A stretch of DNA of 64,000 nucleotides from Candidatus Doudnabacteria bacterium (GTDB lineage: Bacteria; Patescibacteriota; Doudnabacteria; UBA920; 2-01-FULL-46-14), in assembly GCA_041497195.1 (NCBI GenBank), contig JBGQGB010000001.1:213504-277503 (forward strand), written 5' to 3'. Of the stretch, positions 11,268-58,264 are shown piece by piece. Each line of letters opens with the position of its first letter. Position 1 is the stretch's first letter. A program made the position numbers and the translations under genes. The notes under the pieces are model-generated. The model ran no database searches. It saw only the letters and a list, made by a program, of their open reading frames with translations, and was not told where the DNA came from.

Positions 11268-11860
11268 TATTTATTTCGTAAAGTCACGGAACCGCTTATT
11301 TGTTCTGAGGCAGGAAAACGACCGGAGTCAGCAAGGCTAAATTGATAATCGACAGCATGGGCCAAATTAAAATCAGAATTGTCATAGCTCAAATTGATAC
11401 TGTTCAATTTATTAGAAAGTTCAAGAAAACGACCGTGACGATTGCTAGCCGGGTCTGGCGCGACCGTCAGAATTAAACGAGCAGAATTGTTCGGGTCTTG
11501 ACCGATGATCGCGTAATCGTAAGTATTTGGAATTATTTGATTAGAGCTATCAAGTGACGGCAATTGCAAAACAATAAGGTTCGCCCCGGTCGTGTACGTT
11601 ACCGAATTGTAAACATGCGAAGGAACAAAAGCGATAGCGGTACGAACGTAAAGTACTAACTGATCTGCCGCTTCTCGAGCTTCATTGTTAAACCTAACCC
11701 CCCCGGATTGCGTCTGATAAAATTGATTGCTGGAAAGAAAAATACCTACCCCCAAAACTACCAAAATTGCCATCAAAGCAGTCACTACAAGAATTTCTGA
11801 CAAAGTAAAGCCAGAAAAAAACGATTCAAGAGTGAAGGTGCGGTTTTTATGGTTTGCCAA
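11267..11860 (-). CDS. pseudopilin/minor pilin with prepilin-type N-terminal cleavage/methylation domain
   Basis: SGFTLSEILVVTALMAILVV matches the class III signal (G-F-T-L-x-E). Confidence 0.7.
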   Translation of the reverse strand: MANHKNRTFTLESFFSGFTLSEILVVTALMAILVVLGVGIFLSSNQFYQTQSGGVRFNNEAREAADQLVLYVRTAIAFVPSHVYNSVTYTTGANLIVLQLPSLDSSNQIIPNTYDYAIIGQDPNNSARLILTVAPDPASNRHGRFLELSNKLNSINLSYDNSDFNLAHAVDYQFSLADSGRFPASEQISGSVTLRNK

Positions 11861-12224
11861 GTCCGATGCTGCCTATTAAAGTTTCTAAACTCACACTGTG
11901 CGAGCCGCTAGCGTCAGACCAAGAAATTGTCACGACCGCGTCCTTGATTTTAGCGCTACTCTGATAGCTAGCCACTGTCAAGTTTGCACTGCCGGAGGGC
12001 AATTCGGCCAGAGCCGCGTCATTGTAAGAACCACTGGCGGGCAGAGACGCATATGACGTATTTCGAAGTTCCTCAATTTTCTTCGCCGCCAGATGATACG
12101 CAAGGTTTTGATTCCGCGCCGTTTTTATCAGAGGAAGAGACGATATCACCAAACCGAAAATAGTCATGGTAACCAAAAGGAACGCCAGGGCAATAATTAC
12201 CTCCACAAGGGTAAAACCTTTCAT
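11847..12224 (-). CDS. type IV pilin (prepilin N-terminal methylation domain), Ser-rich C-terminal half
   Basis: MKGFTLVEVIIALAFLLV, 125 aa, with an ATGA overlap with pilC. Confidence 0.75.
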   Translation of the reverse strand: MKGFTLVEVIIALAFLLVTMTIFGLVISSLPLIKTARNQNLAYHLAAKKIEELRNTSYASLPASGSYNDAALAELPSGSANLTVASYQSSAKIKDAVVTISWSDASGSHSVSLETLIGSIGLGKP

Positions 12225-13441: not shown

Positions 13442-15196
13442 TTATTCCTTACTTACTCTCAAAACCTCGGCAATTGTCGTCAAACCTAGATGAGCTTTGA
13501 TGAAACCATCTTGCCACATCAAGACCATCCCATCCTGAACAGCTTGCTCCTGGATTTGGTTGGTAGTCGAGCGAGCTAGAATCAATTTGGCGACGCTTTC
13601 CGTGATATCCAAAACTTCATAAATGCCCATGCGACTCTTATAACCAGAGTGTCCGCATTTATCACACCCGCGTCCTTCGTAAAATTCCGCGTCTTGGATG
13701 TGTTTTATCTTTTTGTCCAAAACCTGTTCCCGTTTCATAACCTCCAGCAAATGGTCAAGATTAAAATCCAGCGACAAACTCTGAACCATCTTCTCGTCCA
13801 ATTTTACCTGGGCTTTACAATCGGGACAAATTTTTCGAACCAAACGTTGACCAATGATAGTGTTGAGAGTTGAAGCGATGAGATAAGGCTCGACGCCAAT
13901 ATCCAACAACCGTGGAATCGCGCCGGCCGCATTATTGGTGTGTAGTGTCGACAAGACGATATGGCCGGTCATGGCCGCATGGACGGCTTCTTCCGAAGTC
14001 TCCAAATCACGAATTTCTCCGATCATAATGATATTGGGGTCTTGCCGCAACAGCGCCCGCAACCCAATCGCAAAAGTCAGTCCGATCTTCGGATTGACTT
14101 GCATTTGATTTACTCCAGGCATCCGGTATTCAATCGGGTCTTCGATGGTGCTGATGTTAATGCCTTTAACATTCAGTTTGGTCAAAAAGGTATACAAAGT
14201 GGTGGATTTGCCTGAACCGGTCGGGCCAGTGATGAGCGTCATTCCATGCGGCCTTGTTAAATTACGCTTGATGACCTCAAGCGACGTCCGCGCAAATCCG
14301 AGCTCTTCAAAAGTCAAGGCTTTGGCCCCTTCATCCAACAGACGCAAGACGACTTTTTCTCCGTCAAACACCGGAATAGTCGAGACTCGGAAAGAAATAT
14401 TATACTCGTCGGTTTGAAGCTTGAAACGCCCGTCTTGCGGCAACCGGTGTTCGTCTATTTTCAGATTGGACAGGACTTTCAGGCGGGCAACCAAGGCTGG
14501 TTGAATAATTTTTGGCAGAGTCATCACGTCATGAAGAATCCCGTCAATTCGATAGCGGACAATGACTTCCTTTTCTTGCGGTTCAATGTGGATGTCCGAA
14601 GCCCCTTCAAAAATTGCGTATTCGAGAAGGGTGTCGACTACGCGCACTACCGGAATTTCTTCGGCCATTTTCTTGAGGGACTGGTCTCCCTCACTTTCCA
14701 CACTTTCTGTCGCCGGAGCCCCTTGTTTTTTGGTAGTGAGGATTTTTTCAAACTCAGCCTTTAGGCTGCTATGGTACTGGGCGAGAGCGAATTCCATCCC
14801 GGTCTTTGTAGCGAGATGCGGCTTGATGACGAATCCGGTTTTCTTTTTGACAAATTCCCTGGTCTGCAGGTCCTCGGGGTCGGTCATGGCCAAATCCAAC
14901 TCCTCGCCGCGTTTTTTGAAAGCCACGACCTGGTGCCGATGCGCAATCGGCTCGGGGATAATCTTCAAAACTTCCTCGGGAATCTTAATCTGCGTCAAAT
15001 CCACGAGCGGAATTTTGAGAAAATCACTAACTAATTTGGCAAGCCGCTCCTCGGGAATAATTTTCCGGACAACTAAATAATTCACCAGGGGCTGCTTTTT
15101 GTCCTGGGCTTCTTTTTCCAATTCTGCAAAATCAACATCTTTGATTATCTGTTGATCCACAAGAATTCGCTTGAGGTCAGTTGAGGCCAGAGCCAT
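13442..15196 (-). CDS. pilB: type IV pilus assembly ATPase PilB (GspE family)
   Basis: N-terminal T2SSE_N domain, Walker A GPTGSGKST, Asp and His boxes, and a tetracysteine motif CPDC...CDKCGHSGY. Confidence 0.9.
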   Translation of the reverse strand: MALASTDLKRILVDQQIIKDVDFAELEKEAQDKKQPLVNYLVVRKIIPEERLAKLVSDFLKIPLVDLTQIKIPEEVLKIIPEPIAHRHQVVAFKKRGEELDLAMTDPEDLQTREFVKKKTGFVIKPHLATKTGMEFALAQYHSSLKAEFEKILTTKKQGAPATESVESEGDQSLKKMAEEIPVVRVVDTLLEYAIFEGASDIHIEPQEKEVIVRYRIDGILHDVMTLPKIIQPALVARLKVLSNLKIDEHRLPQDGRFKLQTDEYNISFRVSTIPVFDGEKVVLRLLDEGAKALTFEELGFARTSLEVIKRNLTRPHGMTLITGPTGSGKSTTLYTFLTKLNVKGINISTIEDPIEYRMPGVNQMQVNPKIGLTFAIGLRALLRQDPNIIMIGEIRDLETSEEAVHAAMTGHIVLSTLHTNNAAGAIPRLLDIGVEPYLIASTLNTIIGQRLVRKICPDCKAQVKLDEKMVQSLSLDFNLDHLLEVMKREQVLDKKIKHIQDAEFYEGRGCDKCGHSGYKSRMGIYEVLDITESVAKLILARSTTNQIQEQAVQDGMVLMWQDGFIKAHLGLTTIAEVLRVSKE

Positions 15197-15291: not shown

Positions 15292-15300
15292 ATTATATCA
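15292..15300 (-). promoter_or_regulatory. extended -10 element (TGATATAAT on minus strand) upstream of pilB
   Basis: About 95 nt upstream of the pilB ATG. It overlaps the last codons of the Wzy_C gene. Confidence 0.35.
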
Positions 15301-17748
15301 TTTTTTGCAGGTTGTTTCCAGTTCGTGCAAAAATTGCTGGCCCTGAACAGCGTAAGCATTGTCGATCTGGACTGCCGCCTGAACTTGCTCTCGCGCATTC
15401 ACCAAATCACACATTTGTCCGTATATCGAGGCCAACTGGGCATGCAGAACAGGACTACCCTGATTCATGACCAACGCTGCTTTGTAATTTTCGATGGCTT
15501 TAGAATTGTTGCCGGCTTGCAGATATGCTTGGGCCATGCTTTCGTATTCCTGTTCAGTAAAATGGATATTCAAAATATCAAGGATATATTTCGTCTCAGA
15601 GGCAACGAGACCCTCGCGTCCAGAAATGATTGCAGCCAACAAATAATTAAACCGTGTTTCTTTGGTGGTGGGGTTTAACTCCACTGCTTTTTGAAACTGG
15701 TACAGACCTGTCGGGTAATCTTTTTTGGAAAAATATGCCTGACCTAATTCAACATAAATCTGGGAACGAGTCGGGGAGAGACTCAAGGCCTTTTGCCCTA
15801 ATGTGACGACTTCGCTTAGGGCATTTTGATCGCTGGAATAACGATTTAAAAGACTCATCTCATACAAATAACTTTTCACATCTTGCGGGGCTTCCTTGAT
15901 GCTTTTCTGTATCTCGCTAGTCGCGTATTGATAAAACTCGGCCTTTTCCTGAGGAGACAGGTCCGGGCTGCCTTGCGCGGCGTTGACGTAATCAACCATC
16001 CGTTCCCTGATTTCTTGGTCCATATAAGTTCCGTACGATAGGGCGTGTTTGAAAGCCGGCTCCACCGCTCGATAATTTTGTAGAGCTCCCATTTTTATTC
16101 CCTGGGTCGCATAATAATTGGCAAAGGCTGGCTTGAAATTGACAAAAAGCGCGACAGTAAAAACAATCACTCCCAGAATTATCGGGAAAACTAATCCGGG
16201 ATTGTAGCTGGTTCCTGCCCCCGGCATTTGATCCTCGCTGTCAGAAAAGTTTTTGAGAAAGGCAATGAAACCCAAAAACGTAAAAAACATCAAATAGGTA
16301 GCCTGCGTATCGAAGACAAACATATTCTGGATGAAATAAGCCAAAAGCGTAACCGTCAAAATCAGCGGAAACTGCCAGGGCAAATCCGCAGCATTCTTTC
16401 TGAAAAGTTTCCACAATGTGCCAAAAGCGGCCCCAAAAATTCCCAAATATGCAATCAACCCGACTAAGCCAGAGGTGACGCCGACATCGAAAAATATATT
16501 GTGGGCTCGGTCAAACCAAATTTGACTGCCTTGTTTTTTGAAAATCCTGGCTGGGAAATATTTATTGAAAGCGACATTGTAATTTTCATAGCCGTAACCG
16601 AGAAAAAAACGATCCTTCCAACCCTTCCAAGAGGCTTGCCAGGTATCCAGACGAGACTGTGTCGTAGTATCGTTCACGGAAATGGTCGTCATTCTGAAAA
16701 GGGTACGATTTTGCTTGACCCAATTAGCGTTGCGACTAGCATAAATCAGCGCCGCGGAGAGAATGAGAAAAAAAAGCAGGCCTGATGACACTAATTTGAC
16801 AGATTTGCTAGAAGATTTAAAAATATAAAACAAAAAGTATACAAGCAGAGCAACGAACATGGCGACAAGCGCCCCGCGAGTTTGGGTTTGAAATAAAATC
16901 AACAACTGAAAGAAAAAGGCGGCAGCCAAAAACGGCTTGGTAAATTTTCCTGCCGCAAAAACCACGGCAGCAGCCACAACCAAGTAGACGACAAAATATG
17001 GAAAATAAATCAGCTGGCCGAAACTATCAAACGAGTGAGCTTCGTTGAGTTGAAACAGCAAAGCCAGAACGACTGCAAAAAGAGCCATCAGCCAAAGGGG
17101 TAAAGTAATCGGTTCGTCTTTTTTGATGGAAAAAAACAAATACAGGCTAAGAAATGCCCCGAAGATCAGGAAAGCAGCATAAAACGCGGCATTACCGATC
17201 GTCGCGGAGATCCGATCCCCCCCTGTCGGCAATAGCCTGGCGCAGAAAGCATTCTGGTCAGGTGAAATCTGGGCATTACAATTCAATTGGGCAAAACCAT
17301 ATAGAGCGGTACAGGTGATTATAATGATGGCAATTAGAAAAAAACGCGACCATTCCTTTTTCGATCGCAGGGTGCTGGCTAAAATCGTAAAATAAGCGGC
17401 GAAATGAAGAATCGTGACGATCCCTTCACCTCTCTCCACTGTGCCAAAGAAGCTGCGATGAAAATTCACGCCAAAAAGACTTGCAATCAAAATCACAGCG
17501 ACGTAAATCCACACCGCGCGCATTAGCCAGTTCCATCGCGGACGAACTTCTGGATACCGAAGCGCCAAAATCAAATAAATACAAAGAGCGATTTCGACCA
17601 ACAACCGGAAAAACAAAATTTTGGTAGTGATGAAGGGAAACAAAAACATGCTCCAGACCCACACAGGTGTGAGCAAAAGAGCATATAAAATAACCTTTAA
17701 AAATTTGTAAAGGCGGCTATCATCTAAGGCCGCGACTGGATTAGCCAT
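15298..17748 (-). CDS. Wzy_C (O-antigen ligase/PglL/PilO-like) polytopic membrane protein with C-terminal TPR repeats (816 aa)
   Basis: At least 10 TM helices, a periplasmic loop with R...H and the GYGYENYNVAF motif typical of Wzy_C, and a C-terminal roughly 300-aa TPR region. Confidence 0.6.
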   Translation of the reverse strand: MANPVAALDDSRLYKFLKVILYALLLTPVWVWSMFLFPFITTKILFFRLLVEIALCIYLILALRYPEVRPRWNWLMRAVWIYVAVILIASLFGVNFHRSFFGTVERGEGIVTILHFAAYFTILASTLRSKKEWSRFFLIAIIIITCTALYGFAQLNCNAQISPDQNAFCARLLPTGGDRISATIGNAAFYAAFLIFGAFLSLYLFFSIKKDEPITLPLWLMALFAVVLALLFQLNEAHSFDSFGQLIYFPYFVVYLVVAAAVVFAAGKFTKPFLAAAFFFQLLILFQTQTRGALVAMFVALLVYFLFYIFKSSSKSVKLVSSGLLFFLILSAALIYASRNANWVKQNRTLFRMTTISVNDTTTQSRLDTWQASWKGWKDRFFLGYGYENYNVAFNKYFPARIFKKQGSQIWFDRAHNIFFDVGVTSGLVGLIAYLGIFGAAFGTLWKLFRKNAADLPWQFPLILTVTLLAYFIQNMFVFDTQATYLMFFTFLGFIAFLKNFSDSEDQMPGAGTSYNPGLVFPIILGVIVFTVALFVNFKPAFANYYATQGIKMGALQNYRAVEPAFKHALSYGTYMDQEIRERMVDYVNAAQGSPDLSPQEKAEFYQYATSEIQKSIKEAPQDVKSYLYEMSLLNRYSSDQNALSEVVTLGQKALSLSPTRSQIYVELGQAYFSKKDYPTGLYQFQKAVELNPTTKETRFNYLLAAIISGREGLVASETKYILDILNIHFTEQEYESMAQAYLQAGNNSKAIENYKAALVMNQGSPVLHAQLASIYGQMCDLVNAREQVQAAVQIDNAYAVQGQQFLHELETTCKK

Positions 17749-44041: not shown

Positions 44042-45043
44042 ATGAATCACTACGACAACAAAGCCATTCTCATCACCGGCGGGACCGGATCATTTGGTAA
44101 AAATTTTACCAAGTTCCTTCTGAAAAATCCACTCGTAAAACGAGTCACAATCTTCAGTCGTGACGAGTTCAAGCAGCACTACATGCAAAAGGAGCTCACT
44201 GACCCTCGACTGCGTTTTTTTATCGGCGACGTGCGTGACCTGCCTAGACTAGAACGCGCTTTTCAAGGAGTGGATATCGTTATTCACGCGGCCGCTCTCA
44301 AACATATTCCCGCCCTCGAATACAATCCTTTTGAGGCAGTAAAAACTAATATCATGGGGACTCAAAATGTCATTGAAGCTGCCATCGATCAAAAAGTTGC
44401 TCAGGTACTCTTGATTTCGACTGATAAAGCCGCTCAACCAACTAATTTGTATGGCGCCACCAAACTCTGCGCGGAAAAACTATTCGTATCCGGCAACTCC
44501 TACACCCGCGGCAAAACTACTTTTAGCGCCGTAAGATACGGCAACGTCATAGGAAGTCGTGGCAGTATTGTCGAAATGTTATTAGAAAACAAAGGCAGCG
44601 GCAAAGTCCCAATTACCGATCTGGAAATGACCAGATTTTGGATTACTTTTGCACAAAGTTTTCAACTCGTGACTTTTGCCTTAGAAAATATGGAGGGAGG
44701 CGAAATTTTCGTCCCCAAAATTCCCAGCATGAAATTGATTGATCTTTTTAATATTTTGGCTCCTGGGGTTGAAAAAGAAGTTATCGGAATTAGGCCGGGG
44801 GAAAAACTGCATGAAGTACTGCTGACCGAGCATGAATCGAGACATACCATTGAACTTTCTGACTATTTTGTCATCTTACCGGAATTCACGCACTTTAGCG
44901 GGGAGAGAGGACTTTACGGTAAATACAAAGAGCGGGGGCAAAAACTCGATTCAAAATTCTCTTTTGTGAGCCATACAAATGAAAAATGGCTGACGTCTGA
45001 AGAACTGATATTGATTTTAAAAGAAGCTAGCCTGGAATTATGA
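44042..45043 (+). CDS. pseB: UDP-N-acetylglucosamine 4,6-dehydratase (inverting), PseB/FlaA1/CapD-like
   Basis: ILITGGTGSFGKNF, RVTIFSRDEFKQ, FIGDVRD. Confidence 0.8.
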   Translation: MNHYDNKAILITGGTGSFGKNFTKFLLKNPLVKRVTIFSRDEFKQHYMQKELTDPRLRFFIGDVRDLPRLERAFQGVDIVIHAAALKHIPALEYNPFEAVKTNIMGTQNVIEAAIDQKVAQVLLISTDKAAQPTNLYGATKLCAEKLFVSGNSYTRGKTTFSAVRYGNVIGSRGSIVEMLLENKGSGKVPITDLEMTRFWITFAQSFQLVTFALENMEGGEIFVPKIPSMKLIDLFNILAPGVEKEVIGIRPGEKLHEVLLTEHESRHTIELSDYFVILPEFTHFSGERGLYGKYKERGQKLDSKFSFVSHTNEKWLTSEELILILKEASLEL

Positions 45044-46146
45044 TTCCCTATGGTCACCAAACTGTCGATAAGCTGGACATCCAAGCGGTTAAAAAAGTTT
45101 TAGAATCGGACTATCTGACGACCGGGCCGAAAGTAGTAGAATTTGAATCAGCTGCGAGTAAACTAATAGGAACAAAGTACGCTGTAGCCGTAGCAAACGG
45201 CACTGCGGCTTTACATTTATCCTATTTGGCTGCCGGACTGGGTCCGGGGGATGAAGTCATTACTAGCCCAAACACTTTTGTCGCAACTACTAACATGCTT
45301 TTAGCGGTCGGGGCTAAACCGGTTTTCTGCGACATCCGCACGGATACTCACAATATAGACGAGGATAAAATCGAAAAACTAATCAATCGTAAGACCCGCG
45401 CCATCGTTCCGATGCATTTTGCCGGACATCCGTGCGAGATGGATAAAATTTGGAGATTGGCAAAAAAAAATAAGCTTTTGGTGATTGAAGACGCGGCCCA
45501 CGCTTTTGGAGCAAAATACCGCAATCGCTATATCGGAGGCGGCAAGAGCGACTTAACGACGTTTAGTTTTCATCCTGTCAAATCGATAACCACTGGCGAA
45601 GGCGGTCTGATAGTGACCAACAATCCAAAATTGCACGTAAAACTAAAACTTTTACGCAATCACGGCATAAAAAAAGATAAAAACGGTTTTAATGTGATGA
45701 CCGTTCTGGGCTACAATTTCCGCCTGACCGAGCTACAAGCAGCTTTGGGACTGAGTCAACTGAGCAAACTAAAAAAATTCCTAAACTTGCGCCACCAAAT
45801 GGCGAAATTGTACCGAAATAATTTGAAGCGTCTCCCACAAATTGCGCTACCGGTGGAACACCAGGATTGTTACAGCGCCTGGCACATCTATGTTATTAAT
45901 CTAAAAAATCCGAAACATCGGCTACCTCTTTACCGGCACTTACTCAAAAATGGCATCGGTGCCAACTTCCATTACCCTGCCGTCTATAAGCATCCTTACT
46001 ACCGAAAACTAAATTTGACGGCCTCCTGTCCAGTAGCAGATAACTATAGCGCATCGGCTATAACTTTACCCTTATTCCCTGAACTATCTTCCACTGAAGT
46101 AAAATTTATCTGCAACAAAATTTCAGAATATTTTCAAGCTTTATAA
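45040..46146 (+). CDS. pseC: DegT-family aminotransferase, PseC-like (UDP-4-amino-4,6-dideoxy sugar transaminase)
   Basis: IPYGHQTVDKLDIQAVKKVLESDYLTTGPKVVEFE. The Lys region FSFHPVKSITTGEGG. ATGA overlap with pseB. Confidence 0.75.
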   Translation: MIPYGHQTVDKLDIQAVKKVLESDYLTTGPKVVEFESAASKLIGTKYAVAVANGTAALHLSYLAAGLGPGDEVITSPNTFVATTNMLLAVGAKPVFCDIRTDTHNIDEDKIEKLINRKTRAIVPMHFAGHPCEMDKIWRLAKKNKLLVIEDAAHAFGAKYRNRYIGGGKSDLTTFSFHPVKSITTGEGGLIVTNNPKLHVKLKLLRNHGIKKDKNGFNVMTVLGYNFRLTELQAALGLSQLSKLKKFLNLRHQMAKLYRNNLKRLPQIALPVEHQDCYSAWHIYVINLKNPKHRLPLYRHLLKNGIGANFHYPAVYKHPYYRKLNLTASCPVADNYSASAITLPLFPELSSTEVKFICNKISEYFQAL

Positions 46147-46154
46147 CTCTTTGC

Positions 46155-46772
46155 ATGGCCAAGGAAAAAACCGCTATTATCATTTTGGGAGGAGGTTTGA
46201 AAAGGAATAAAAATGGAAGCTGGCGAACAGCCAATTATGGCAAAGCAGGCGACAAATTCGGCATGACCGGGGACCGCTTGCGGATAATCGCCGGCGCATA
46301 TTTGGCTCAAGACCACGGCGAATACCTTGTTCTTGCGGCGGGCGGGCGGGGCCAATATAAAAATATCCCCGGGTCTCCTAATATTTCTAGGGTAATTAAA
46401 AATGAGCTTCTAGAACTAGGGGTCCCTAAAAAACAAATTCTGGAAGAGAGCAAGTCAGATACGACTTACCGGCAGCTGCAGAATGTCACCAGATTAGTTC
46501 GCAAGCTGCGAGTTATTAAAGTTTTTATCCTAACCAACCAATGGCATATTCCGCGAATTCTGGCTTTACTAAAACATAACCCTGGGCTACGTAAACTCGC
46601 CGGATACGAGCCAGAACTGCTCTCAGCGGAAACCATTGTGTTAAAATATGATCGGAAAAAATGGAGAAAAATCATTCAAACAGCCCGTTCCAGCAAAGAG
46701 TTTAAAAAACGTGTGAAGCTTGAAATGAATGGCATTAAAGCTATTAAAAATCAAACCTACTTTTACAAATAA
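46155..46772 (+). CDS. DUF218 (YdcF/ElyC/SanA-like) domain protein
   Basis: AIIILGGG...LVLAAGGRG...SKSDTTYRQL pattern. Confidence 0.5.
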   Translation: MAKEKTAIIILGGGLKRNKNGSWRTANYGKAGDKFGMTGDRLRIIAGAYLAQDHGEYLVLAAGGRGQYKNIPGSPNISRVIKNELLELGVPKKQILEESKSDTTYRQLQNVTRLVRKLRVIKVFILTNQWHIPRILALLKHNPGLRKLAGYEPELLSAETIVLKYDRKKWRKIIQTARSSKEFKKRVKLEMNGIKAIKNQTYFYK

Positions 46773-46775
46773 TAT

Positions 46776-47858
46776 ATGAGCCGGAAAATAACAATTCAAA
46801 CACCCAAAGGGAAACGCCACATTGGCCCTAACGAACCGGTTTTTATTGTCGCTGAAATGTCTGGCAATCATAATCAGGATATCAACCGAGCGTTTGCGAT
46901 TATTGATGCGGCAGCAGAAGCGGGCGCCGATGCCGTCAAATTGCAGACGTATACCGCTGATACTTTGACTATAAATTCGGATAAAAAATGGTTCCGGGTC
47001 GAAGTTAACAAAGCATGGAAAGGACGGACTTTGTACCAATTATACCAGGAGGCCCATACGCCCTGGGATTGGCAACCCAAACTAAAAAAATATGCGGAAA
47101 GCAAAGGCCTGGTCTTGTTTTCGACACCTTTTGACGAAACCTCGGTAGATTTCTTGGAGAGATTGGATGTTCAACTCTATAAAATTGCCTCTTTTGAAAA
47201 CGGCGATTTAGAATTGTTACAAAAAATTGGCCAAACGAAAAAACCAGTAATCATATCGCGTGGCATGAGTTCGATCGAGGATTTAAAGCTCTCCCTCCGG
47301 ACGCTCAGATCGGCTGGTGCTCCGGAAATTGCCGTACTGCACTGCATCAGTTCCTACCCCGCAACCCCTGATCAGATGAATTTGGCAACGATTCCCGACA
47401 TCGCCAAACGTTTCAAAGTCATATCGGGATTGTCTGATCACACCCTCGGCATTAATGTGGCTATAGGTGCCGTAGCTCTGGGGGCATCCATCATAGAGAA
47501 ACATTTTACGCTCAAACGATCGGGCGGAGGGGTGGATGCCGAGTTTTCCCTCGAACCGCATGAGCTAAAAAAGCTGGTGCAAGCCATACGAGAAACAGAA
47601 ATAGCCATCGGCAAGCCCACTTACGAAATAGAATCTAAAGAGGCCGAAAATCTAGTCTTCCGCCGCTCATTATTTATCGTAAAAAACATCAAGGCCGGAG
47701 AAAAACTGACTTCAAAAAACGTTAGATCAATTCGTCCGGGATACGGGCTTCCGCCTAAATATCTAAAGAGAATTTTGGGAAAAACCGTAAAAAAAAATTT
47801 AGATCGAGGAACTCCGCTGTCTTGGAGTTTAATAAATTCGGGAAGCAATGTTGATTAA
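46776..47858 (+). CDS. pseI: NeuB-family nonulosonic acid synthase (pseudaminic/legionaminic/sialic acid synthase) with C-terminal SAF domain
   Basis: IVAEMSGNHNQDINRAFAIIDAAAEAGADAVKLQTY and a C-terminal antifreeze-like domain. Confidence 0.8.
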   Translation: MSRKITIQTPKGKRHIGPNEPVFIVAEMSGNHNQDINRAFAIIDAAAEAGADAVKLQTYTADTLTINSDKKWFRVEVNKAWKGRTLYQLYQEAHTPWDWQPKLKKYAESKGLVLFSTPFDETSVDFLERLDVQLYKIASFENGDLELLQKIGQTKKPVIISRGMSSIEDLKLSLRTLRSAGAPEIAVLHCISSYPATPDQMNLATIPDIAKRFKVISGLSDHTLGINVAIGAVALGASIIEKHFTLKRSGGGVDAEFSLEPHELKKLVQAIRETEIAIGKPTYEIESKEAENLVFRRSLFIVKNIKAGEKLTSKNVRSIRPGYGLPPKYLKRILGKTVKKNLDRGTPLSWSLINSGSNVD

Positions 47859-48516
47859 TATAGTCACTGACAATAAAAAAAGCTGGTTTTACAGCAAAGT
47901 TATAAGACTGGCCAAACGGATCAGAGCCCTCAGCCACCGTGTTAAAATATTATCTGATGCCGCAAAATTGCCGAGTCGCTCGGATATTACATTTTTTTTA
48001 AGCTACGAAAACTACATTCCCCGCAAAGTCCGCTACCAAAGCCGTCATAATATCGTGATTCACGCCAGTGATCTGCCACGAGGCCGCGGCATGTCCCCGG
48101 CTACATGGCAAATTGTAGCTGGGCAAAAAACGATCCCGGTTACGTTATTTGAGGTTGCCGACGGTTTTGACTCGGGGGATTTCTACCTAAAAGACAAATT
48201 TCATCTAGACGGGACAGAATTGATAGAGGAGTGGCGGGAAAAACTTTACCTATGCATGGAGAGAATGATTTTGAAATTTGTAAATAATATTAACAACCTG
48301 GAACCTCTGAAACAACGGGGAAAAATAAGCGTCTATCCACGTCGGACTTTCGAAAACAGCAAGCTTGATATCAACAAGTCGCTAAAATCGCAGTTCAACC
48401 TTCTGAGAGTGACAGACAACGAAAGGTACCCCGCCTTTTTCAACCACCGCGGTAACAAATATATTTTGAAGGTTTATAAAAAATCGGCAAATCACAAAGG
48501 TAATAAAGAAAAATAG
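47848..48516 (+). CDS. formyltransferase-family protein (Fmt/PurN N-domain-like; sugar N-formyltransferase candidate)
   Basis: HASDLPRGRGMSPATWQIVAGQK contains the conserved Asn/His/Asp catalytic-region pattern of formyltransferases. 222 aa. Confidence 0.6.
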   Translation: MLINIVTDNKKSWFYSKVIRLAKRIRALSHRVKILSDAAKLPSRSDITFFLSYENYIPRKVRYQSRHNIVIHASDLPRGRGMSPATWQIVAGQKTIPVTLFEVADGFDSGDFYLKDKFHLDGTELIEEWREKLYLCMERMILKFVNNINNLEPLKQRGKISVYPRRTFENSKLDINKSLKSQFNLLRVTDNERYPAFFNHRGNKYILKVYKKSANHKGNKEK

Positions 48517-51533: not shown

Positions 51534-52559
51534 TCAAGGAATCATGGAAAATCCTGCAAGTGTCATCAGCAACAATGACTGAAAAACTGAACGGTTGCCG
51601 CCCCAGGCAAAGTCTATGAACAGTCCCGATTTCTCGCTGAATATAATCGCCAGGGAATCATACAAACCCCCTACGGACAGATATTCAACTCGACCAAAAA
51701 TTAAATCCATAAGCCCCCGGATCTTCATAGTCGTCATTAGATTGCTCTCTGGTAGATCTACGCCAATAAATTGCAGATACTTCCGATCCAGGTCATCAGG
51801 TGTTTGGTCTTGCCCGTCCAAACGCAGTCCTCGGTAAATCCCACCCTCGACCTTATAATCAAGGCGAGACAGGTTAGGGCCGCTCAAATCATAATCCGCG
51901 ATCGCACCGCCCTCTCCGATTATATGGAACTTGCCGACGCTGTAGTCGCGCGGCTCGACAATGCTCGCTTTGATCCCGTTCCGGAATATTATTTGCCGTT
52001 CGGCAATTTTCCCGTGCGAATAGGTATTTTTTATTTTGGAAATATAATTTACCCCGGTTAGCATTTTCAAAGTTGCCAGGGCATGATAACGATAGCCGCT
52101 GTGAATCAAGCTTATTTCTTTAATCTTGCCGATCTGGCCTTGGTCAATAAGTTTGCGCGCCAGCACAAAAGGGGGCAAAGTGATTGAGTCTTCCGAAACG
52201 CCAACGGATCTAAATTTTTTAAAATATCTGGCACAGCGGATGTCATGCAAACTCAAAACAGGCGTATCAATCAGTAATCGCACGTGCTGTGTATTATAAA
52301 CGGCCAATTTCTTGAGCACATCGGGAACCTGTTCCAAAGTTACTGCCACCATAATCAAATCCAGGGATCGAAAATCGATTCTCGAGAAATCATTGATCGT
52401 CTGGATTTGCATTTTCCGGTTGAAAAGCGAAATATCTTTAATTGACCGCGAATAAACAGCAAGCAATTCAAATTCATCTTGCAAGCAGTAGATTGCCGGC
52501 AAAATAGTATTTTGGACCCGCTGACCTGAACCAATCACCAGAACGTTTTTCTTAGGCAT
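51534..52559 (-). CDS. Gfo/Idh/MocA-like oxidoreductase (divergent)
   Basis: NVLVIGSGQRVQNTILPAI N-terminal Rossmann-like motif. The start is set at MPKKN, 8 nt overlapping the upstream stop. Confidence 0.4.
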   Translation of the reverse strand: MPKKNVLVIGSGQRVQNTILPAIYCLQDEFELLAVYSRSIKDISLFNRKMQIQTINDFSRIDFRSLDLIMVAVTLEQVPDVLKKLAVYNTQHVRLLIDTPVLSLHDIRCARYFKKFRSVGVSEDSITLPPFVLARKLIDQGQIGKIKEISLIHSGYRYHALATLKMLTGVNYISKIKNTYSHGKIAERQIIFRNGIKASIVEPRDYSVGKFHIIGEGGAIADYDLSGPNLSRLDYKVEGGIYRGLRLDGQDQTPDDLDRKYLQFIGVDLPESNLMTTMKIRGLMDLIFGRVEYLSVGGLYDSLAIIFSEKSGLFIDFAWGGNRSVFQSLLLMTLAGFSMIP

Positions 52560-53991
52560 TTGATTTGATATGATCAGCCAGTCTGATCGCCAAGGCAATA
52601 ATAGTTGCCGTGGGATGTGCATACCCAGCAGTCGGAAATAGCGAACTGCCTGCGACGTATAAATTATTAAGCGTATGGACTTTGCAGTTTTGGTCCACGA
52701 CAGACGTTTTCGGCTCAGTTCCCATGCGCGTCGTACCCATGTGATGCGAAGCGTCAGTTTTGATTGGCCATTCGGCCGCAGTCTCATCCAACAAGGGACT
52801 CTCCAAATCCCCTATTTTCATTCGGTTTAATTCCGCCTTGAGGGTCTCATGCAAGATGCGCATGGTTTTTTTCTCCAAATTGCTTACTGACCAAAAAATT
52901 TCGGCCCGCGGCCTGCCGAACGCGTCCCGAGTCTGACCCAATGCAATCCGGTTCTCCGGATTCGGCTCCTGCTCCATGAAGTTCCGGAGTGAAATCGAGA
53001 CCGGCTTTGGATTGACAATTTTCCGGATGAATTTGGCAAAAATTGAAGATCGTCCAAAATTCGGCTGTAGCTGAACATAGCTGTTCAGAACTTGTTCGTG
53101 TTTCTGGATCTGTTCGCTCAAGCCCAGCCCAATGAAGTACTGTCCGAATTGGTCGTAGCCGTCCCAAAAACCGCTCAAATCCAGATTCTGATCGGATAAC
53201 CTAATCGTTCCCACTTTTCCTTTAGGATGGTCCATATAGTATCGGCCAACCTGGTCAGATTCGTTTCCGATGCCAGATAGCAAAAGCAAACGAGCATTTT
53301 CAATCCCGCCGCAAGCCAAAATGAAGACTTTCGCATTAACACGGAAAGCATTACCGGCGAAAGTTTTCACCGCCACGTTCTCCACTCCGGAATTAGCTGC
53401 CCCAGCCGGCAAATTCAAAGCAACGGCATTGAAATAGACTTGGATATTTGACGATTGTTCAAAACGAGTATAAAAAACTTTTGCAAAATTGATTTTGTCC
53501 TGGTCCATGCGCCGCACGATGGTCGGGTTTACAGTACTCCGGGCAAATAAATTTTCATGGGGCCCAAAGGCTTCTGGGCTTGGAGCCTGGACCAATTTCG
53601 CAGCCCGTTCGTAATACGCGTCCAAATCCTCCCGGCCTATCGGCCAGCCCGAATGCGGCACCCAAGGCCGTGCAGCAAAATCAATCTGGTCATGGAGTTT
53701 CCAAATGCCGGCCCAGACCTGCGTCGTCCCACCAAAGCCTTGGGTCCGGGATTTTGGCGAGATTGGCAAACCAGTTGTTCCAAACTCATACAGTGCATCA
53801 AGTTCGGTCTGATTTTCCAGCGCGCCGCTTTCCAAAACGCAGATGCTTTTTTGTTGACTTTCCAGTTCGAGCGCCAGCGGGATACCTGCCGCGCCCGTGC
53901 CGATGATACAAATATCAGCCTCGATAATCGTATCATCTGCAATGGTCCGCGCGTCAATGAACATATTCCAAGCCTTTCCAAACTTCCGCAA
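52552..53991 (-). CDS. GMC-family FAD-dependent oxidoreductase
   Basis: DICIIGTGAAGIPLALEL (FAD GxGxxG) and C-terminal HHMGTTRMG (GMC active-site His region). Confidence 0.75.
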   Translation of the reverse strand: MRKFGKAWNMFIDARTIADDTIIEADICIIGTGAAGIPLALELESQQKSICVLESGALENQTELDALYEFGTTGLPISPKSRTQGFGGTTQVWAGIWKLHDQIDFAARPWVPHSGWPIGREDLDAYYERAAKLVQAPSPEAFGPHENLFARSTVNPTIVRRMDQDKINFAKVFYTRFEQSSNIQVYFNAVALNLPAGAANSGVENVAVKTFAGNAFRVNAKVFILACGGIENARLLLLSGIGNESDQVGRYYMDHPKGKVGTIRLSDQNLDLSGFWDGYDQFGQYFIGLGLSEQIQKHEQVLNSYVQLQPNFGRSSIFAKFIRKIVNPKPVSISLRNFMEQEPNPENRIALGQTRDAFGRPRAEIFWSVSNLEKKTMRILHETLKAELNRMKIGDLESPLLDETAAEWPIKTDASHHMGTTRMGTEPKTSVVDQNCKVHTLNNLYVAGSSLFPTAGYAHPTATIIALAIRLADHIKSNA

Positions 53992-55012
53992 AGGTAATAT
54001 CTCTCATGCAGCGGGAAAAATCCTCGCGCAAAGCATTCGGGCAATTCATCATGTAGCATTTCGGATGTACTGGCTCCTGGCACTCGCCCACAATCACAGC
54101 TTTTGCTCCCTGCGGGCGCTGGCTCGTGCTACAGCACGGGCCCATTAAATCCACCACCGGCACAGCCAAAGCGTCAGCGATATACAAGGGTCCAGTATCA
54201 GCGGAAACAAACACTGAAAAAATGCTTACTAAAGCTGCCAATTGACTTAATGAAAACAAACCTGCTGTATTGAAAAACATGCCGCGGTCCACACTTAAGG
54301 CCAGTTTCTCCAATTTCTCCCGCTCCGGTAGCGAACCGACTCCAATCACGCAAAATCCAGACTCATTTAATCGGTTCACCAAGTGCGCAAAGTTCTCAAT
54401 TCCCCATTCTTTGAAATCCTTTCCCGCAGTGACGGAGATTCCCGCTAACTTTTTGCCTTGTAATCCGTACTGGTTTAAAAATTGGTCGGCTACCACGCGA
54501 TCTTGCGCATCAAAATAAACCTCTCGCCGCCGGACCGGATTTGTGACCCCCAATGCTTTCGCCATCTCCAAATAATGATCCTGGGCCGCGGTGACGAAAT
54601 CATAGTTAAACTTCTTGGTCAAAAAAAACGAATAAAGTTTTTCCTTTTTTGACATTTTGTCATGCACGGTCCCGAGCAAATTCGGAATTCCCGCGACAAC
54701 GCACCTTTTCAAGATTTCCACGCTGGGCATCAAAATCAATACGTGCGAATATTGTTTCTGTCTGAGTATCCGGATACTTACTGTTCTGGGCAAAATTTCT
54801 CCGACCGCATCATTGCCTTTCAGAACTTCTTCAGCAAAAGTACCGGCTACTACATCAACCGGTTCGGCAAAATTGTTTTTCAGCGTTCGAAACAAAGGCG
54901 TCGTGCAGACCAAATCCCCGATTTTTCCCTCTTGTACGACTAAAACCCGGCGCCTGCCGGTAGACGATTTCAAAAATAAGCGAGCCGTGAGCGTTGTGAG
55001 GAAATCAAACAT
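53954..55012 (-). CDS. glycosyltransferase family 9 (ADP-heptose-dependent heptosyltransferase)
   Basis: VLVVQEGKIGDLVCTTPLFRTLK N-terminal motif. GT-B, 352 aa. Confidence 0.7.
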   Translation of the reverse strand: MFDFLTTLTARLFLKSSTGRRRVLVVQEGKIGDLVCTTPLFRTLKNNFAEPVDVVAGTFAEEVLKGNDAVGEILPRTVSIRILRQKQYSHVLILMPSVEILKRCVVAGIPNLLGTVHDKMSKKEKLYSFFLTKKFNYDFVTAAQDHYLEMAKALGVTNPVRRREVYFDAQDRVVADQFLNQYGLQGKKLAGISVTAGKDFKEWGIENFAHLVNRLNESGFCVIGVGSLPEREKLEKLALSVDRGMFFNTAGLFSLSQLAALVSIFSVFVSADTGPLYIADALAVPVVDLMGPCCSTSQRPQGAKAVIVGECQEPVHPKCYMMNCPNALREDFSRCMRDITFAEVWKGLEYVH

Positions 55013-55964
55013 TCAAGTAATTTTTGACATAATCATTGATGCCGTCTTCCAATTCGAAAAAGGCTTCCGAATAACCGGCTCTCCGCAAACTGCTGACATC
55101 AGCTTGAGTGAAATACTGATACTTTTGCCGAATCTCCCGGGGCATCTCGAAAAATTCTAGATTTGGCTCTCGGTTGAGCGAGGCGAAAAGTGCTTTACCC
55201 AGATCCAGAAAACTCCTAGCCTTTCCCGTCCCGACATTAAATATCCCGCTGTGTTGCGGATTATCCAAAAAAAACATAATCACCTTCAGCACATCCTTGG
55301 CGTAAACGAAATCTCGCTTCTCGCCCCCATCCGCCAATCCGGGCTGGGATGACTTAAATAAACGCATCTTCCCGGTTTGTTTTATTTGTTCATAGCCCTG
55401 GCAGATAAGCGAGGCCATCTTACCTTTATGACCCTCATTCGGCCCATAGACATTGAAAAATTTCAAGCCGACCCATTGACCGGGTTTTTGCCTGCTATCC
55501 AAGACCATTTCGTCAAACCAATATTTCGAATAACCATACAGATTCAGCGGGGTGAACCGCCGTGCCTGATCGCTGAACCCTTGACTGCCGTCTCCATACG
55601 TTGCTGCCGAAGACCCGTAAATAAAGCGCGAGCCGGCTCGAACGCAATAATCAAACAAAACTTTTGAGTACTGGGTGTTGTTCTCGCGGAAATATTGCTC
55701 ATCCTGCACGGTAGTATCCGTACAGGCGCCCAAATGGATGATGGTTTCGATTCCCGTAAGCTCGGGGAGTATAGTTAAAAATTCGTTCTTGCCAAAATAG
55801 CGCTCGTATTTCAAATTTTGCAAATGAGTTTTTTTCCGCTCATAGTCAAGCTGATCCACGACATAAAGCGACTGGAGGCCACGCAGGTTCAGCGCCTGGA
55901 CCAAATTTGAGCCGATGAACCCGGCGGCTCCAGTGACGACGATTTTGTTACTTTGCTCCGACAT
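55005..55964 (-). CDS. hldD: ADP-L-glycero-D-manno-heptose 6-epimerase
   Basis: IVVTGAAGFIGSN, YGSSAATYG, NLYGYSKYWFDE, FNVYGPNEGHKG, KRDFVY, FNVGTG, YFTQAD, LRRAGY. Block-by-block match to E. coli HldD. Confidence 0.9.
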   Translation of the reverse strand: MSEQSNKIVVTGAAGFIGSNLVQALNLRGLQSLYVVDQLDYERKKTHLQNLKYERYFGKNEFLTILPELTGIETIIHLGACTDTTVQDEQYFRENNTQYSKVLFDYCVRAGSRFIYGSSAATYGDGSQGFSDQARRFTPLNLYGYSKYWFDEMVLDSRQKPGQWVGLKFFNVYGPNEGHKGKMASLICQGYEQIKQTGKMRLFKSSQPGLADGGEKRDFVYAKDVLKVIMFFLDNPQHSGIFNVGTGKARSFLDLGKALFASLNREPNLEFFEMPREIRQKYQYFTQADVSSLRRAGYSEAFFELEDGINDYVKNYLNV

Positions 55965-56958
55965 TGAAAATCTTACTTACTGCGCTTTTCAGGTCGCGGG
56001 CATAAAAATTCGGCTCCAGTTTTAGATCTCTAGGCATGGGGGGACCCAGCTTAATCGTGTTTGCATTGACCTCACGGCCCATAACAATATCCGCAGGTCC
56101 ATCTCCAATCACCCAACTATGATTGAGGTTCAAATGAAAATCTTTTACTGCCTGCATGATGAGTACTGTCCCTGGTTTCCGGCAATCGCAGTGATCAGCG
56201 GGTTTGTGTGGACAAATATAAATGGCATCGAGCCGGATACCCCGCATGCGGAGTTCCCGCTTCATGTGTTGGTGAAGTTTTATGGTGTGGCTTTTCGGAA
56301 AATAGCCGCGACCGATGCCAGATTGATTGGTAATCACAATGATTTTATACTCCGATTTACTGAGTCTCTTTAGGGCCTGGGGAGTGCCGGGTACGAATTC
56401 GAAGTCTTCGATTTTGTGAATGTATCCCCGTTTATTTAAATTAATCGTTCCGTCTCTATCAAGGAAGACAGCTCGAGGCGAGGAGCTGGCATTTGCGTTT
56501 TTGAATTTTTTTATCAAATTCGAAGTTGAGTAGCCTAGCTTCAATTTTATTACCGCGACGCGGCCACCGTATCTCTCAACGGTAGCGCGTTCAATGCAAT
56601 TTTTTCCCCAGTCCGACCCGTTTGCGTGAATCGCCGGGCGTACAACAGACAAAATTATTTTTGGGTTGATCTCGTCAAACAAACACACATAATCAACGCA
56701 CTCCAAAGCCGCAAGCAAAACCGCACGGGCGTTCTGGTCAAGAATCGGCCGCTGCGACCCTTTATAGCTTCTGACTGACTTATCGCTATTCAAAAGAACC
56801 GCGAGCCGATCGCCTTGGGCCCTGGCTTGGCGCAACAACTCCAAATGGCCGGGGTGCAGAATATCAAAACTCCCGTTCACGGTGACCAGCTTTTGTTTCT
56901 GGTTTTTCATTTGACGGGAGATGGCGGCTAACTGCTTTCTGGATCTAAACTTTTTCAT
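55948..56958 (-). CDS. hldC: fusion of D-beta-D-heptose-1-phosphate adenylyltransferase (HldE domain II/HldC) and D,D-heptose-1,7-bisphosphate phosphatase (GmhB)
   Basis: N-half: LVTVNGSFDILHPGHLELLRQARAQGDRLAVLLNSD..GYSTSNLIKK (cytidylyltransferase-like). C-half: LDRDGTIN..., ITNQSGIGRGYF and CDCRKP (HAD/GmhB). The start is set at MKKFRSRKQ. Confidence 0.75.
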   Translation of the reverse strand: MKKFRSRKQLAAISRQMKNQKQKLVTVNGSFDILHPGHLELLRQARAQGDRLAVLLNSDKSVRSYKGSQRPILDQNARAVLLAALECVDYVCLFDEINPKIILSVVRPAIHANGSDWGKNCIERATVERYGGRVAVIKLKLGYSTSNLIKKFKNANASSSPRAVFLDRDGTINLNKRGYIHKIEDFEFVPGTPQALKRLSKSEYKIIVITNQSGIGRGYFPKSHTIKLHQHMKRELRMRGIRLDAIYICPHKPADHCDCRKPGTVLIMQAVKDFHLNLNHSWVIGDGPADIVMGREVNANTIKLGPPMPRDLKLEPNFYARDLKSAVSKIFNVGAK

Positions 56959-58264
56959 AATCGCCGAGGTTGATTTTTTTGCTTTCTTCAAAACGATTAG
57001 TATCAGCTTCCTCGTGATGTGTACTGATCTCCAAAATTTCCGAGTTCTCCATTCCCGTGAAACGGTGTACGGTCCCTGGAGGGATCCGAATATAATTATT
57101 CTCCCGGAGATGCAAAACTTTGTCACCTAGCTCCAAACGAACATGCCCTTTGGTGATGAGAAACATCTCATCTTTCACCTTGTGGGAGTGCAGACTGCAT
57201 TGATACCCTTTATTCAAAGACAGCAATTTGGAGCAATATTTGTCGTTATTTTCAAGCCACTTTTCAAATCCCCAAACCTTTGGAACAACTTCCACAGCGC
57301 TCACATCATGGTGAGAGACGAGAGCTGACAGTAATTCTTCAGCTGAGAGAGTGGCAGTACCAAATTTTTGCACGACTATTTCACCCGCCAAATTTCCTAA
57401 ATGGGCCGCCTCTGCCAAGTTCAAGTCGCACACCATGCCCAAAGCCACTACCGCGACAACCGTATCTCCCGCGCCGCTGACGTCAAATACTTTGACTTTT
57501 CTCGAGGGTAAATGCTTCGCCGGTTTTGCTTTTTCGAAAACATAAATTCCGTTTTCTCCCATGGTCAAAACTACAGATGCATTGAAATCTTTGACTAATT
57601 GCGGGCCAATTTCTTCGAGAGTAATGGAACCGGTCATTTCCATACCTTCTTTTACGTTTGGCGTTATCACGTCAACGCCATAAAAAATTTTTTTATTGCT
57701 TGGCTTGAGGTCGGCAACGATTAACTTGTGGCCTTTTTTCCCCAGCTTGATGATCTCCGCCACCGCCCGTTCGGACAAAGCCCCTTTCGCATAGTCGGAA
57801 AAAATTATCGCCTCGCAGGCTGGCAGCAGCCGTTTGACTGTTGTAATCAGCCGATCCTCCTCGTCCGTATCCAAAGACTTCACAACCTCGTCATCAACGC
57901 GGAGAAGCTGATGGCCAGCTGCCACTAGCCGATGCTTCAAAATTGTCGGACGAGTGGTGAAATCCAGAACGCCAGCGGCAGAAATCCGATTCTTCTTCAA
58001 TAATTCGAGAATCTTGGTTTTCCTTGAATCGTCCCCAACAAAACCACAGAGAGTAACGCGGGCGCCCAAGGCCGCTGCATTATTGGCCACATTTGCCGCC
58101 CCTCCCAACACAAAATTTTCCTCTAATTTATGCAGTATCGGGACCGGGGCTTCGGGCGACATACGTGTTACTTCGCCATAGGTGTACTGGTCGAGCATGA
58201 TGTCGCCGACTACTAAAATCCCTTTTCCGGCAAATTGTTTGATGGCGCGGCGCAGATGTTCCAT
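56945..58264 (-). CDS. hldA: D-beta-D-heptose-7-phosphate kinase (HldE domain I/HldA, PfkB family) fused to a C-terminal phosphomannose-isomerase type II-like cupin domain
   Basis: N-terminus ILVVGDIMLDQYTYGEVTRMSPEAPVPIL...GGAANVANN...GFVGDD, and a GAGD motif later. The C-terminal roughly 115 aa (VPKVWGFEKWL...SLHSHKVKDEMFLITKGHVRLE...YIRIPPGTVHRF..ILEIS..EEADTNRFE) matches the cupin PMI domain of ManC/AlgA-type enzymes. Confidence 0.75.
   Translation of the reverse strand: MEHLRRAIKQFAGKGILVVGDIMLDQYTYGEVTRMSPEAPVPILHKLEENFVLGGAANVANNAAALGARVTLCGFVGDDSRKTKILELLKKNRISAAGVLDFTTRPTILKHRLVAAGHQLLRVDDEVVKSLDTDEEDRLITTVKRLLPACEAIIFSDYAKGALSERAVAEIIKLGKKGHKLIVADLKPSNKKIFYGVDVITPNVKEGMEMTGSITLEEIGPQLVKDFNASVVLTMGENGIYVFEKAKPAKHLPSRKVKVFDVSGAGDTVVAVVALGMVCDLNLAEAAHLGNLAGEIVVQKFGTATLSAEELLSALVSHHDVSAVEVVPKVWGFEKWLENNDKYCSKLLSLNKGYQCSLHSHKVKDEMFLITKGHVRLELGDKVLHLRENNYIRIPPGTVHRFTGMENSEILEISTHHEEADTNRFEESKKINLGDYEKV

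Follow-up and report, generated by a model that had tools for sequence, protein, structure and literature searches.

Which steps of ADP-heptose synthesis can share a polypeptide? The question is raised by a gene on the minus strand of a 64-kb stretch of contig JBGQGB010000001.1 from a Candidatus Doudnabacteria bacterium (the window, in whose positions coordinates are given unless another contig is named). The gene encodes a protein of 336 amino acids (aa) in which an adenylyltransferase domain of the HldC family is followed by a phosphatase domain of the GmhB family. An earlier examination of the letters alone (the sequence-only reading) had proposed that the adenylyltransferase is joined here to GmhB and not to the kinase, and both domain profiles and structure matches bear this out. 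The protein probably works in the ADP-heptose pathway as a bifunctional GmhB/HldC enzyme, an assignment made from sequence to which a probability of about 85% can be attached; that the consecutive steps 3 and 4 lie on one protein, as was also proposed, follows directly from the homology. What is new is the architecture. The catalytic domains all come from well-known families, and the route to ADP-heptose is the textbook one.

The two halves of the fusion protein

The fusion occupies one intact open reading frame (ORF) with exactly the boundaries first proposed, running from an ATG at 56958 to a stop at 55948-55950. A GTG at 57126, the start given in the ORF list, was rejected; the ATG is taken as the real start because the start of 25 homologues falls no more than a few residues from the methionine that it encodes. 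The junction between the halves, KKFKNANASSSPRAVFLDRDGT, holds neither a stop nor a change of frame and reads through cleanly. Along the protein, Pfam places CTP_transf_like and then HAD families.

Among the NCBIfam profiles, the top family of the N-terminal half is TIGR02199, which is covered from position 2 to position 143 of 144, and the broader model TIGR00125 is passed. The nucleotide-binding signature is embedded in GSFDILHPGH at aa 29-38, and the second motif, of the form (S/T)T(S/T), is represented by S144-T145-S146. An alignment of 26 homologues (50-58% identity) shows no variation at G29, F31, D32, H35, G37, H38 and S144, and at least 90% of the sequences keep T145. By phmmer, the closest sequence in the PDB is HldC of Burkholderia pseudomallei (5x9q/5xf2; expect value (E) 1.6e-24), with TagD following at E 4.2e-07. 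Foldseek searches with an AlphaFold2 (AF2) model match this half to HldC 5xf2 at a target-normalised TM-score (TMt) of 0.84, a root-mean-square deviation (rmsd) of 2.3 A and 41-44% identity. The TagD structures 1coz and 2b7l superpose at TMt 0.82-0.86 and rmsd 2.1-2.7 A but share 24-27% identity, and the Fom1 CyTase shares 26%. TagD, which the sequence-only reading had named as the possible alternative, and other cytidylyltransferases were rejected because hidden Markov model (HMM) scores (34.9 bits for the TagD models, 157.9 for HldC) and structural identity both favour HldC.

The C-terminal half finds its top NCBIfam family in NF006506, the GmhB (beta) model, which matches aa 161-302 with 166.2 bits (E 5.2e-49), and it passes the subfamily models TIGR01656 (138 bits against a cut-off of 84) and TIGR01662 (104 against 45). 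All four HAD motifs are found (D167-R-D169-G-T171; T210-N-Q-S; K261; G285-D286...D290), together with a zinc loop made up of C249, H251, C257 and C259 that aligns to the same loop of Escherichia coli GmhB. DRDGTIN and CDCRKP, the motifs by which the phosphatase had first been recognised, lie at aa 167-173 and 257-262. All 26 homologues have C249, H251, C257, R260, K261 and P262, and at least 90% of them have D167, D169 and C259. E. coli GmhB (2gmw) is the nearest PDB entry by sequence (E 1.7e-29) and superposes at TMt 0.87 and rmsd 2.1 A with 33-34% identity. No solved PDB chain covered both halves in the sequence search. The AF2 model of the entire fusion has a predicted local distance difference test score (pLDDT) of 88.7, falling to about 57-64 in the linker, and a predicted TM-score (pTM) of 0.84, and is consistent with a compact two-domain protein.

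Three features bear on the anomer. The C-terminal half scores higher with the beta-anomer model than with the alpha-anomer model (166 against 124 bits), the kinase of the same operon is of the PfkB type and not of the GHMP type, and the transferase is of the HldC type and not of the HddC type. Together they point to the ADP/beta route, with the beta-anomer as the predicted form. As for the nucleotide, Tang et al. tie a (F/L)xxGRSTT motif to promiscuity towards CTP and UTP, one or the other of which is used by some heptose nucleotidyltransferases (PMC11573728). In the window protein the corresponding segment is LKLGYSTS, with Tyr143 in place of the Arg, and Arg occupies this position in one of the 26 homologues. 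The missing Arg makes ATP the likeliest nucleotide of the HldC half.

Several points weigh against the assignment of the protein to ADP-heptose synthesis. The HldC half lies 24 bits under the curated equivalog cut-off of TIGR02199 (157.9 against 181.5), the GmhB half 12 bits under that of NF006506 (166.2 against 178), and the neighbouring kinase reaches 315 bits with TIGR02198, for which the cut-off is 345; all three are thus slightly short of the equivalog level, and their exact substrates are not certified by these models. The choice of ATP has the missing Arg of the STTR5 motif as its single basis. Biochemistry on any member of the architecture was not found in the searchable literature. 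The likely host phylum is not known to have an outer membrane or lipopolysaccharide (LPS), which bears on what could accept the heptose.

Scores of this order would also suit domains with other jobs, the N-terminal half being another HxGH nucleotidyltransferase (a TagD-like glycerol-3-phosphate cytidylyltransferase, or an enzyme forming CDP- or UDP-heptose) or the C-terminal half a HisB-N-like or generic HAD phosphatase. TIGR01656, a 'histidinol-ppas' domain model, is indeed among those passed, and the use of CTP or UTP by some heptose nucleotidyltransferases (PMC11573728) would fit. The profiles nevertheless separate these families, since HisB-N reaches 103.6 bits (cut-off 140) where GmhB reaches 166, and the TagD models trail HldC in score and identity alike. 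The residue linked to promiscuity is a Tyr here and seldom an Arg in the homologues, and in many genomes the gene stands between an HldA kinase and HldD/GT9. Other jobs for the two domains are accordingly judged improbable.

The operon and its cupin

The fusion gene has overlapping neighbours on both sides (Table 1). On the upstream side its ATG and the stop of the kinase-cupin gene overlap by 14 nt, its own stop lies 17 nt within hldD, and hldD overlaps the gene of a glycosyltransferase family 9 (GT9) enzyme by 8 nt. With stops and starts interlocked in this way, kinase-cupin, fusion, hldD and GT9 form one translationally coupled operon, which is placed within a region of about 45 kb for surface-glycan synthesis. 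The same gene set is found around homologues at six other loci (L004, L007, L008, L169, L170 and L174). The sequence-only reading had also described the kinase as a separate gene fused to a cupin, and the profiles delimit precisely these two domains. The E values for the kinase and for both halves of the fusion are far below anything that chance would give.

Table 1. Features of the ADP-heptose operon, with positions in the 64-kb window
Feature	Position	Strand	Details
hldC-gmhB fusion gene	55948..56958	minus	336 aa + stop
HldC domain, aa 13-153	56500..56922	minus	TIGR02199 (rfaE_dom_II) 157.9 bits, E 1.4e-46
HPGH, aa 35-38	56845..56856	minus	HxGH nucleotide-binding signature of the cytidylyl/adenylyltransferase fold
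LKLGYSTS, aa 139-146	56521..56544	minus	second nucleotidyltransferase motif; Tyr143 at the Arg position of 'STTR5'
GmhB domain, aa 161-336, HAD-IIIA, D,D-heptose-1,7-bisphosphate 7-phosphatase type	55951..56478	minus	NF006506
DRDGT, aa 167-171	56446..56460	minus	HAD motif 1: nucleophile Asp167, acid/base Asp169
CPHKPADHCDCRKP, aa 249-262	56173..56214	minus	Cys-His-Cys-Cys zinc loop typical of GmhB/HisB-N, and HAD motif 3 Lys261
HldA-type heptose-7-phosphate kinase + PMI-type cupin (PMI, phosphomannose isomerase), 439 aa	56945..58264	minus	upstream partner gene
PfkB/HldA kinase domain, aa 8-315	57320..58243	minus	TIGR02198 315 bits, E 4.8e-94
Cupin domain, aa 325-430	56975..57292	minus	PF01050, Cupin_2; candidate sedoheptulose-7-phosphate isomerase
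hldD, ADP-L-glycero-D-manno-heptose 6-epimerase	55005..55964	minus	TIGR02197 383.6 bits, cut-off 274.6 passed
GT9-family heptosyltransferase	53954..55012	minus	PF01075 75.2 bits; TIGR02195 74 bits, under cut-off

In the proposed pathway the kinase-cupin protein would supply the bisphosphate, from which the C-terminal GmhB domain would remove the 7-phosphate (step 3) by means of its nucleophile Asp167, a Mg site and the structural Zn loop; the N-terminal HldC domain would adenylylate the resulting heptose 1-phosphate (step 4). HldD would then epimerise the product at C6'', and the GT9 enzyme, the likely consumer of ADP-heptose, would transfer the heptose to a surface glycan. The fusion may benefit the cell through a fixed 1:1 stoichiometry and the closeness of consecutive steps.

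What carries out step 1 is a question that leads to the cupin. In the familiar pathway GmhA converts sedoheptulose 7-phosphate to D-glycero-D-manno-heptose 7-phosphate, the seven-carbon analogue of the conversion of fructose 6-phosphate to mannose 6-phosphate by PMI. The PMI-type cupin is somewhat favoured as a non-homologous replacement of GmhA, that is, as a metal-dependent sedoheptulose-7-phosphate isomerase. The pairing of steps 1 and 2 put forward in the sequence-only reading depends on the cupin being the isomerase, which is plausible and indirectly supported. An isomerase of this kind has no description that could be found in the searchable literature.

The cupin matches positions 11-115 of the 116 in PF01050, the C-terminal domain of type II PMIs, with 35.6 bits (cut-off 23.6), and reaches 38 bits with Cupin_2. 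Its metal ligands H359, H361, E366 and H400 are all present, the first being a His where canonical PMIs have a Gln (SLHSH, against SLQKH in the ManC of locus L043). The AF2 model of the cupin (pLDDT 93.9) finds its best fold match in the PMI of Thermococcus kodakarensis (7zvy; query-normalised TM-score (TMq) 0.77, TMt 0.81-0.85, about 17% identity), and D-lyxose/mannose isomerases also rank high. A fold match of this kind is weak by itself because many cupins score similarly; a profile of the cupin family likewise had 7zvy as its best single-domain PDB match. An RmlC-like 3,5-epimerase was considered and rejected, the matches being marginal (E 0.11-0.13) and PF00908 yielding none.

Gene content offers a second line of evidence. 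Eleven independent heptose clusters carry the cupin and no detectable GmhA within flanks of 8-10 kb on each side: seven with the HldC-GmhB fusion (the window, L004, L007, L008, L089, L170 and L174), a further two at L175 and L176, and two with each domain on its own gene (L171 and L031). Sixteen clusters have GmhA near the kinase and no cupin. The two occur together in none of the 38 kinase-containing loci, an alternation with a Fisher p of 7e-4 (1.4e-3 among fusion-bearing loci only), in both cases uncorrected for shared ancestry. L043 is the only GmhA locus with a cupin match, and there the cupin lies inside a canonical ManC-type guanylyltransferase/phosphomannose isomerase (GMP/PMI) protein. 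Within the 64-kb window, tblastn and phmmer searches with an E. coli GmhA sequence as probe found no GmhA-like ORF; with the same probe, GmhA came up at over 25 other loci (1e-19 to 1e-47). No SIS match was present among the called genes within 10 kb on either side of the fusion. These genomes may still carry gmhA at another place, and the cupin may serve some other purpose.

Fusions also associate the cupin with heptose enzymes. A full-length kinase-cupin search returned HldA-cupin fusions in at least 120 clusters at 90% identity, and a search with the cupin only gave at least 29 matches. The protein P0188, of architecture GmhB-cupin-HldC, represents a second, independent fusion of a cupin to heptose enzymes. 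One kinase-cupin gene stands head-to-head with a GAPDH-RpiB-Rpe-transketolase series; transketolase, Rpe and RpiB are the source of sedoheptulose 7-phosphate.

Membership of a PMI family also admits a different product. Were the cupin a true PMI, with kinase, phosphatase and adenylyltransferase acting on mannose phosphates, the operon would make an ADP-hexose (ADP-beta-mannose). PF01050 and the solved PMI nearest to the cupin speak for this, as do its remoter relatives, which adjoin a nucleoside triphosphate (NTP) transferase of the mannose-1-phosphate type; P0147 is an example. Those relatives belong, however, to a PMI-annotated group of 122-143-aa proteins (most of 138 aa), whereas the cupins of heptose clusters form a subgroup of their own, sharing 54-66% identity with one another and 34-40% with that group, and have SLH[YS]H in place of SLQ[FY]H at the first ligand. 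The cupin moreover alternates with GmhA and not with a PMI, and transketolase, Rpe and RpiB genes adjoin one of the kinase-cupin genes. HldD, an epimerase working on C6'' of a heptose, is kept in most such clusters, and its score is above the equivalog cut-off. An ADP-hexose is therefore an unlikely product.

If the cupin is instead the sedoheptulose-7-phosphate isomerase, two polypeptides, an isomerase-kinase and an adenylyltransferase-phosphatase, would cover the whole way from sedoheptulose 7-phosphate to ADP-heptose, four steps in all. The first committed step would then have a new analogous enzyme, which would explain why gmhA can look 'missing'.

Two further loci concern the cupin. At L168 (Patescibacteria; 8957-12870 of that contig) a GlmS-like gene (GATase + SIS) comes next after an HldA gene and the fusion; cupin and GmhA are both absent within 10 kb, making this the only kinase-bearing fusion locus with neither. 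L173 (Logan ERR3200796, 46 kb) encodes at 8001-8327 a 108-aa cupin that is 54% identical to the cupin of the window. The contig is phage-like, with a gene for a large terminase and numerous short ORFs that lack annotation, and no heptose genes were found near the cupin.

Patescibacteria are not known to have LPS, and GT9 enzymes would thus hand the heptose on to surface glycans, which might sit on pili or on other proteins of the cell surface. The window holds type IV pilus genes on the minus strand (PilM at 8668-9795, PilC-like T2SSF at 12221-13438 and PilB-like T2SSE at 13442-15196), followed directly by the gene of an 816-aa Wzy_C protein with TPR repeats (15298-17748, minus strand). Wzy_C is the O-antigen-ligase/O-oligosaccharyltransferase family, and at L174 two Wzy_C genes lie directly upstream of the kinase-cupin gene. 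A heptose-containing glycan may be attached to pilin or another surface protein.

Directly after GT9, and in the same operon, 51534-53991 (minus strand) encodes a GMC-family oxidoreductase, 470 aa long in the gene call for L001, and a protein of 341 aa that Pfam does not match. A DegT-type aminotransferase, a DUF218 protein, a NeuB-type synthase and a formyltransferase-like gene stand in series at 45040-48516 (plus strand), which looks like a nonulosonic-acid (pseudaminic/legionaminic-type) sugar pathway in the same glycan island. At 722-3210 (plus strand) a glucose-6-phosphate dehydrogenase adjoins a short 6-phosphogluconate dehydrogenase; this oxidative pentose-phosphate branch, which is not known to be common in reduced Patescibacteria genomes, can feed sedoheptulose 7-phosphate.

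Recurrence of the fusion

A search of 5.8 billion proteins returned the fusion in at least 120 clusters at 90% identity, all of 324-353 aa with both Pfam domains and 50-58% identity to the query. In the alignment of 26 homologues the linker of about 10 aa is constant in length and ungapped. That a sequencing or assembly frameshift had merged separate hldC and gmhB genes, the possibility that the sequence-only reading had itself named as fatal, is hardly credible: hldE and gmhB genes that adjoin or overlap in separate frames are indeed found, as in Desulfuromonadales (L018, L054, L059), and mimic a fusion in tblastn, but an identical 336-aa protein comes from three independent assemblies (JGI 3300052992, JGI 3300053056 and Logan SRR35962460), the architecture and linker are shared by these 120 or more clusters and by at least 73 at 50% identity, and the junction reads through without a break.

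Architectures were counted from protein searches and not from contig scans, which in genomes and metagenomes gave mostly single-domain relatives, with about 20 true fusions among the matches listed. Seven tblastn matches that appeared full-length (L018, L043, L054, L059, L061, L069 and L075; Desulfuromonadales, Sedimentisphaerales and Eubacterium) were rejected as fusions, being hldE with an overlapping gmhB in another frame, and were left out of the counts. Phmmer, run exhaustively against 1.84 billion representatives at 50% identity, found 355 proteins at E <= 1e-30, the best 150 of which were sorted with domain probes, examples being checked by Pfam. HldC-GmhB was the commonest architecture among these 150 (73 representatives), followed by the reverse order, GmhB-HldC (23), and by HldC-GmhB with a C-terminal extension of 250-300 aa (10). 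HldA-HldC-GmhB accounted for four, while GmhB-HldC-HldA, HldC-GmhB-GmhA and the GmhB-cupin-HldC protein P0188 occurred once each; the remainder were single-domain proteins or fragments. The ten extended proteins are P0169, P0183, P0195, P0197, P0198, P0202, P0205, P0216, P0217 and P0254, and in both of the two that were scanned with Pfam the extension carries a histidine-kinase-type HATPase_c domain.

Since both domain orders exist, HldC and GmhB have been joined at least twice independently. This recurrence argues for selection for the linkage; it is not evidence of the channelling at which the sequence-only reading had hinted. Nor is the arrangement peculiar to the genome of the window. HldC-GmhB is a large family that belongs mainly to the Patescibacteria, with relatives in DPANN, methanogen archaea and some other bacteria. 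Most of the named relatives are Patescibacteria (Saccharibacteria, Microgenomates, Kerfeldbacteria, Parcubacteria/Paceibacterota, Daviesbacteria and Liptonbacteria), and remoter fusions with 33-43% identity come from Methanosarcinales, several unclassified bacteria and Bdellovibrionota; in the bacteria among these, the gene lies outside any heptose cluster. Three fusions from unclassified bacteria (L010, L013 and L015), with 33-38% identity and a longer linker, adjoin a uvrC-like gene; kinase, GmhA and GT9 genes were all absent within about 10 kb around them, so that no operon ties this subgroup to heptose genes.

Comparison with known systems

The fusion family is abundant and largely hidden by its names. 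Databases list its members as 'HAD-IIIA family hydrolase', as 'GmhB' only, or as 'rfaE bifunctional protein nucleotidyltransferase chain/domain', and the kinase as 'PfkB family carbohydrate kinase'. The names 'HAD-IIIA family hydrolase' and 'PfkB family carbohydrate kinase' were probably given by NCBI because the scores fall under the equivalog cut-offs. As a consequence of such misnaming, ADP-heptose synthesis is undercounted in reconstructions of Patescibacteria and DPANN archaea. The searchable literature contained no description that we could find of an HldC-GmhB fusion or of ADP-heptose in Patescibacteria, also called the candidate phyla radiation (CPR). ADP-heptose is both an LPS precursor and a potent agonist of ALPK1, an innate-immune receptor of vertebrates. 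A complete ADP-L,D-heptose operon would be kept in organisms presumed to have no outer membrane, metagenome-assembled genomes (MAGs) of Saccharibacteria included. The joining of consecutive steps also provides a clean system in which to ask whether fusion gives kinetic coupling.

For the cupin, the closest parallels are 7zvy and 7zvm, the minimal cupin PMIs of Thermococcus, and the type II PMI domain found in ManC/AlgA, which have an HxH...E...H metal site like that of the window cupin. The chemistry is also alike, since a PMI interconverts a ketose phosphate and a manno-configured aldose phosphate, as the window cupin is proposed to do. Their genomic partner, however, is a mannose-1-phosphate guanylyltransferase, whereas the partners of the window cupin are heptose enzymes. 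Replacement of one isomerase fold by another has a precedent in the cupin-type phosphoglucose isomerases (PF06560), which replace the SIS-type enzyme, also in some CPR (PMC7304191); they differ from the window cupin in substrate and in cupin family. A cupin replacement of GmhA is not documented in the searchable literature.

The individual domains of the fusion have stand-alone counterparts. In Burkholderia, HldA and HldC are unlinked, as kinase and adenylyltransferase are in the window, and Burkholderia HldC (5xf2/5x9q) is the nearest solved relative of the N-terminal half; it is, however, a protein of about 160 aa on its own, whereas the HldC of the window carries a GmhB domain. E. coli GmhB (2gmw, 3l8e) shares with the C-terminal half the capless HAD-IIIA fold, the DxDGT motif, the CxH...CxC zinc loop and RKP. 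It too stands alone, where the GmhB of the window is the C-terminal domain of a fusion.

E. coli HldE (RfaE) is the obvious bifunctional counterpart. Its adenylyltransferase is of the same family (aa 6-154 of the window protein correspond to 324-473 of HldE, by NF008454) and serves the same pathway with the same product. In HldE, however, the transferase is C-terminal to the kinase and the steps so joined, 2 and 4, are not consecutive, whereas in the window protein it is N-terminal to the phosphatase, steps 3 and 4 follow one another, and the kinase resides on another polypeptide. HldE is defined by kinase and adenylyltransferase on one polypeptide, a linkage that the window protein does not have, and the protein should therefore not be filed as HldE.

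A wider frame is given by Tang et al., whose cross-kingdom survey of the enzymes that make heptoses, as summarised in PMC11573728, recognises three types of heptose nucleotidyltransferase: mono-domain, kinase/nucleotidyltransferase and isomerase/kinase/nucleotidyltransferase. The fusion resembles these types in its catalytic domain and in its pathway logic, and fusions within the pathway are already recognised there. A transferase/phosphatase didomain is not among the types listed there. The nucleotidyltransferase-phosphatase didomain would constitute a fourth type of heptose nucleotidyltransferase, and an abundant one.

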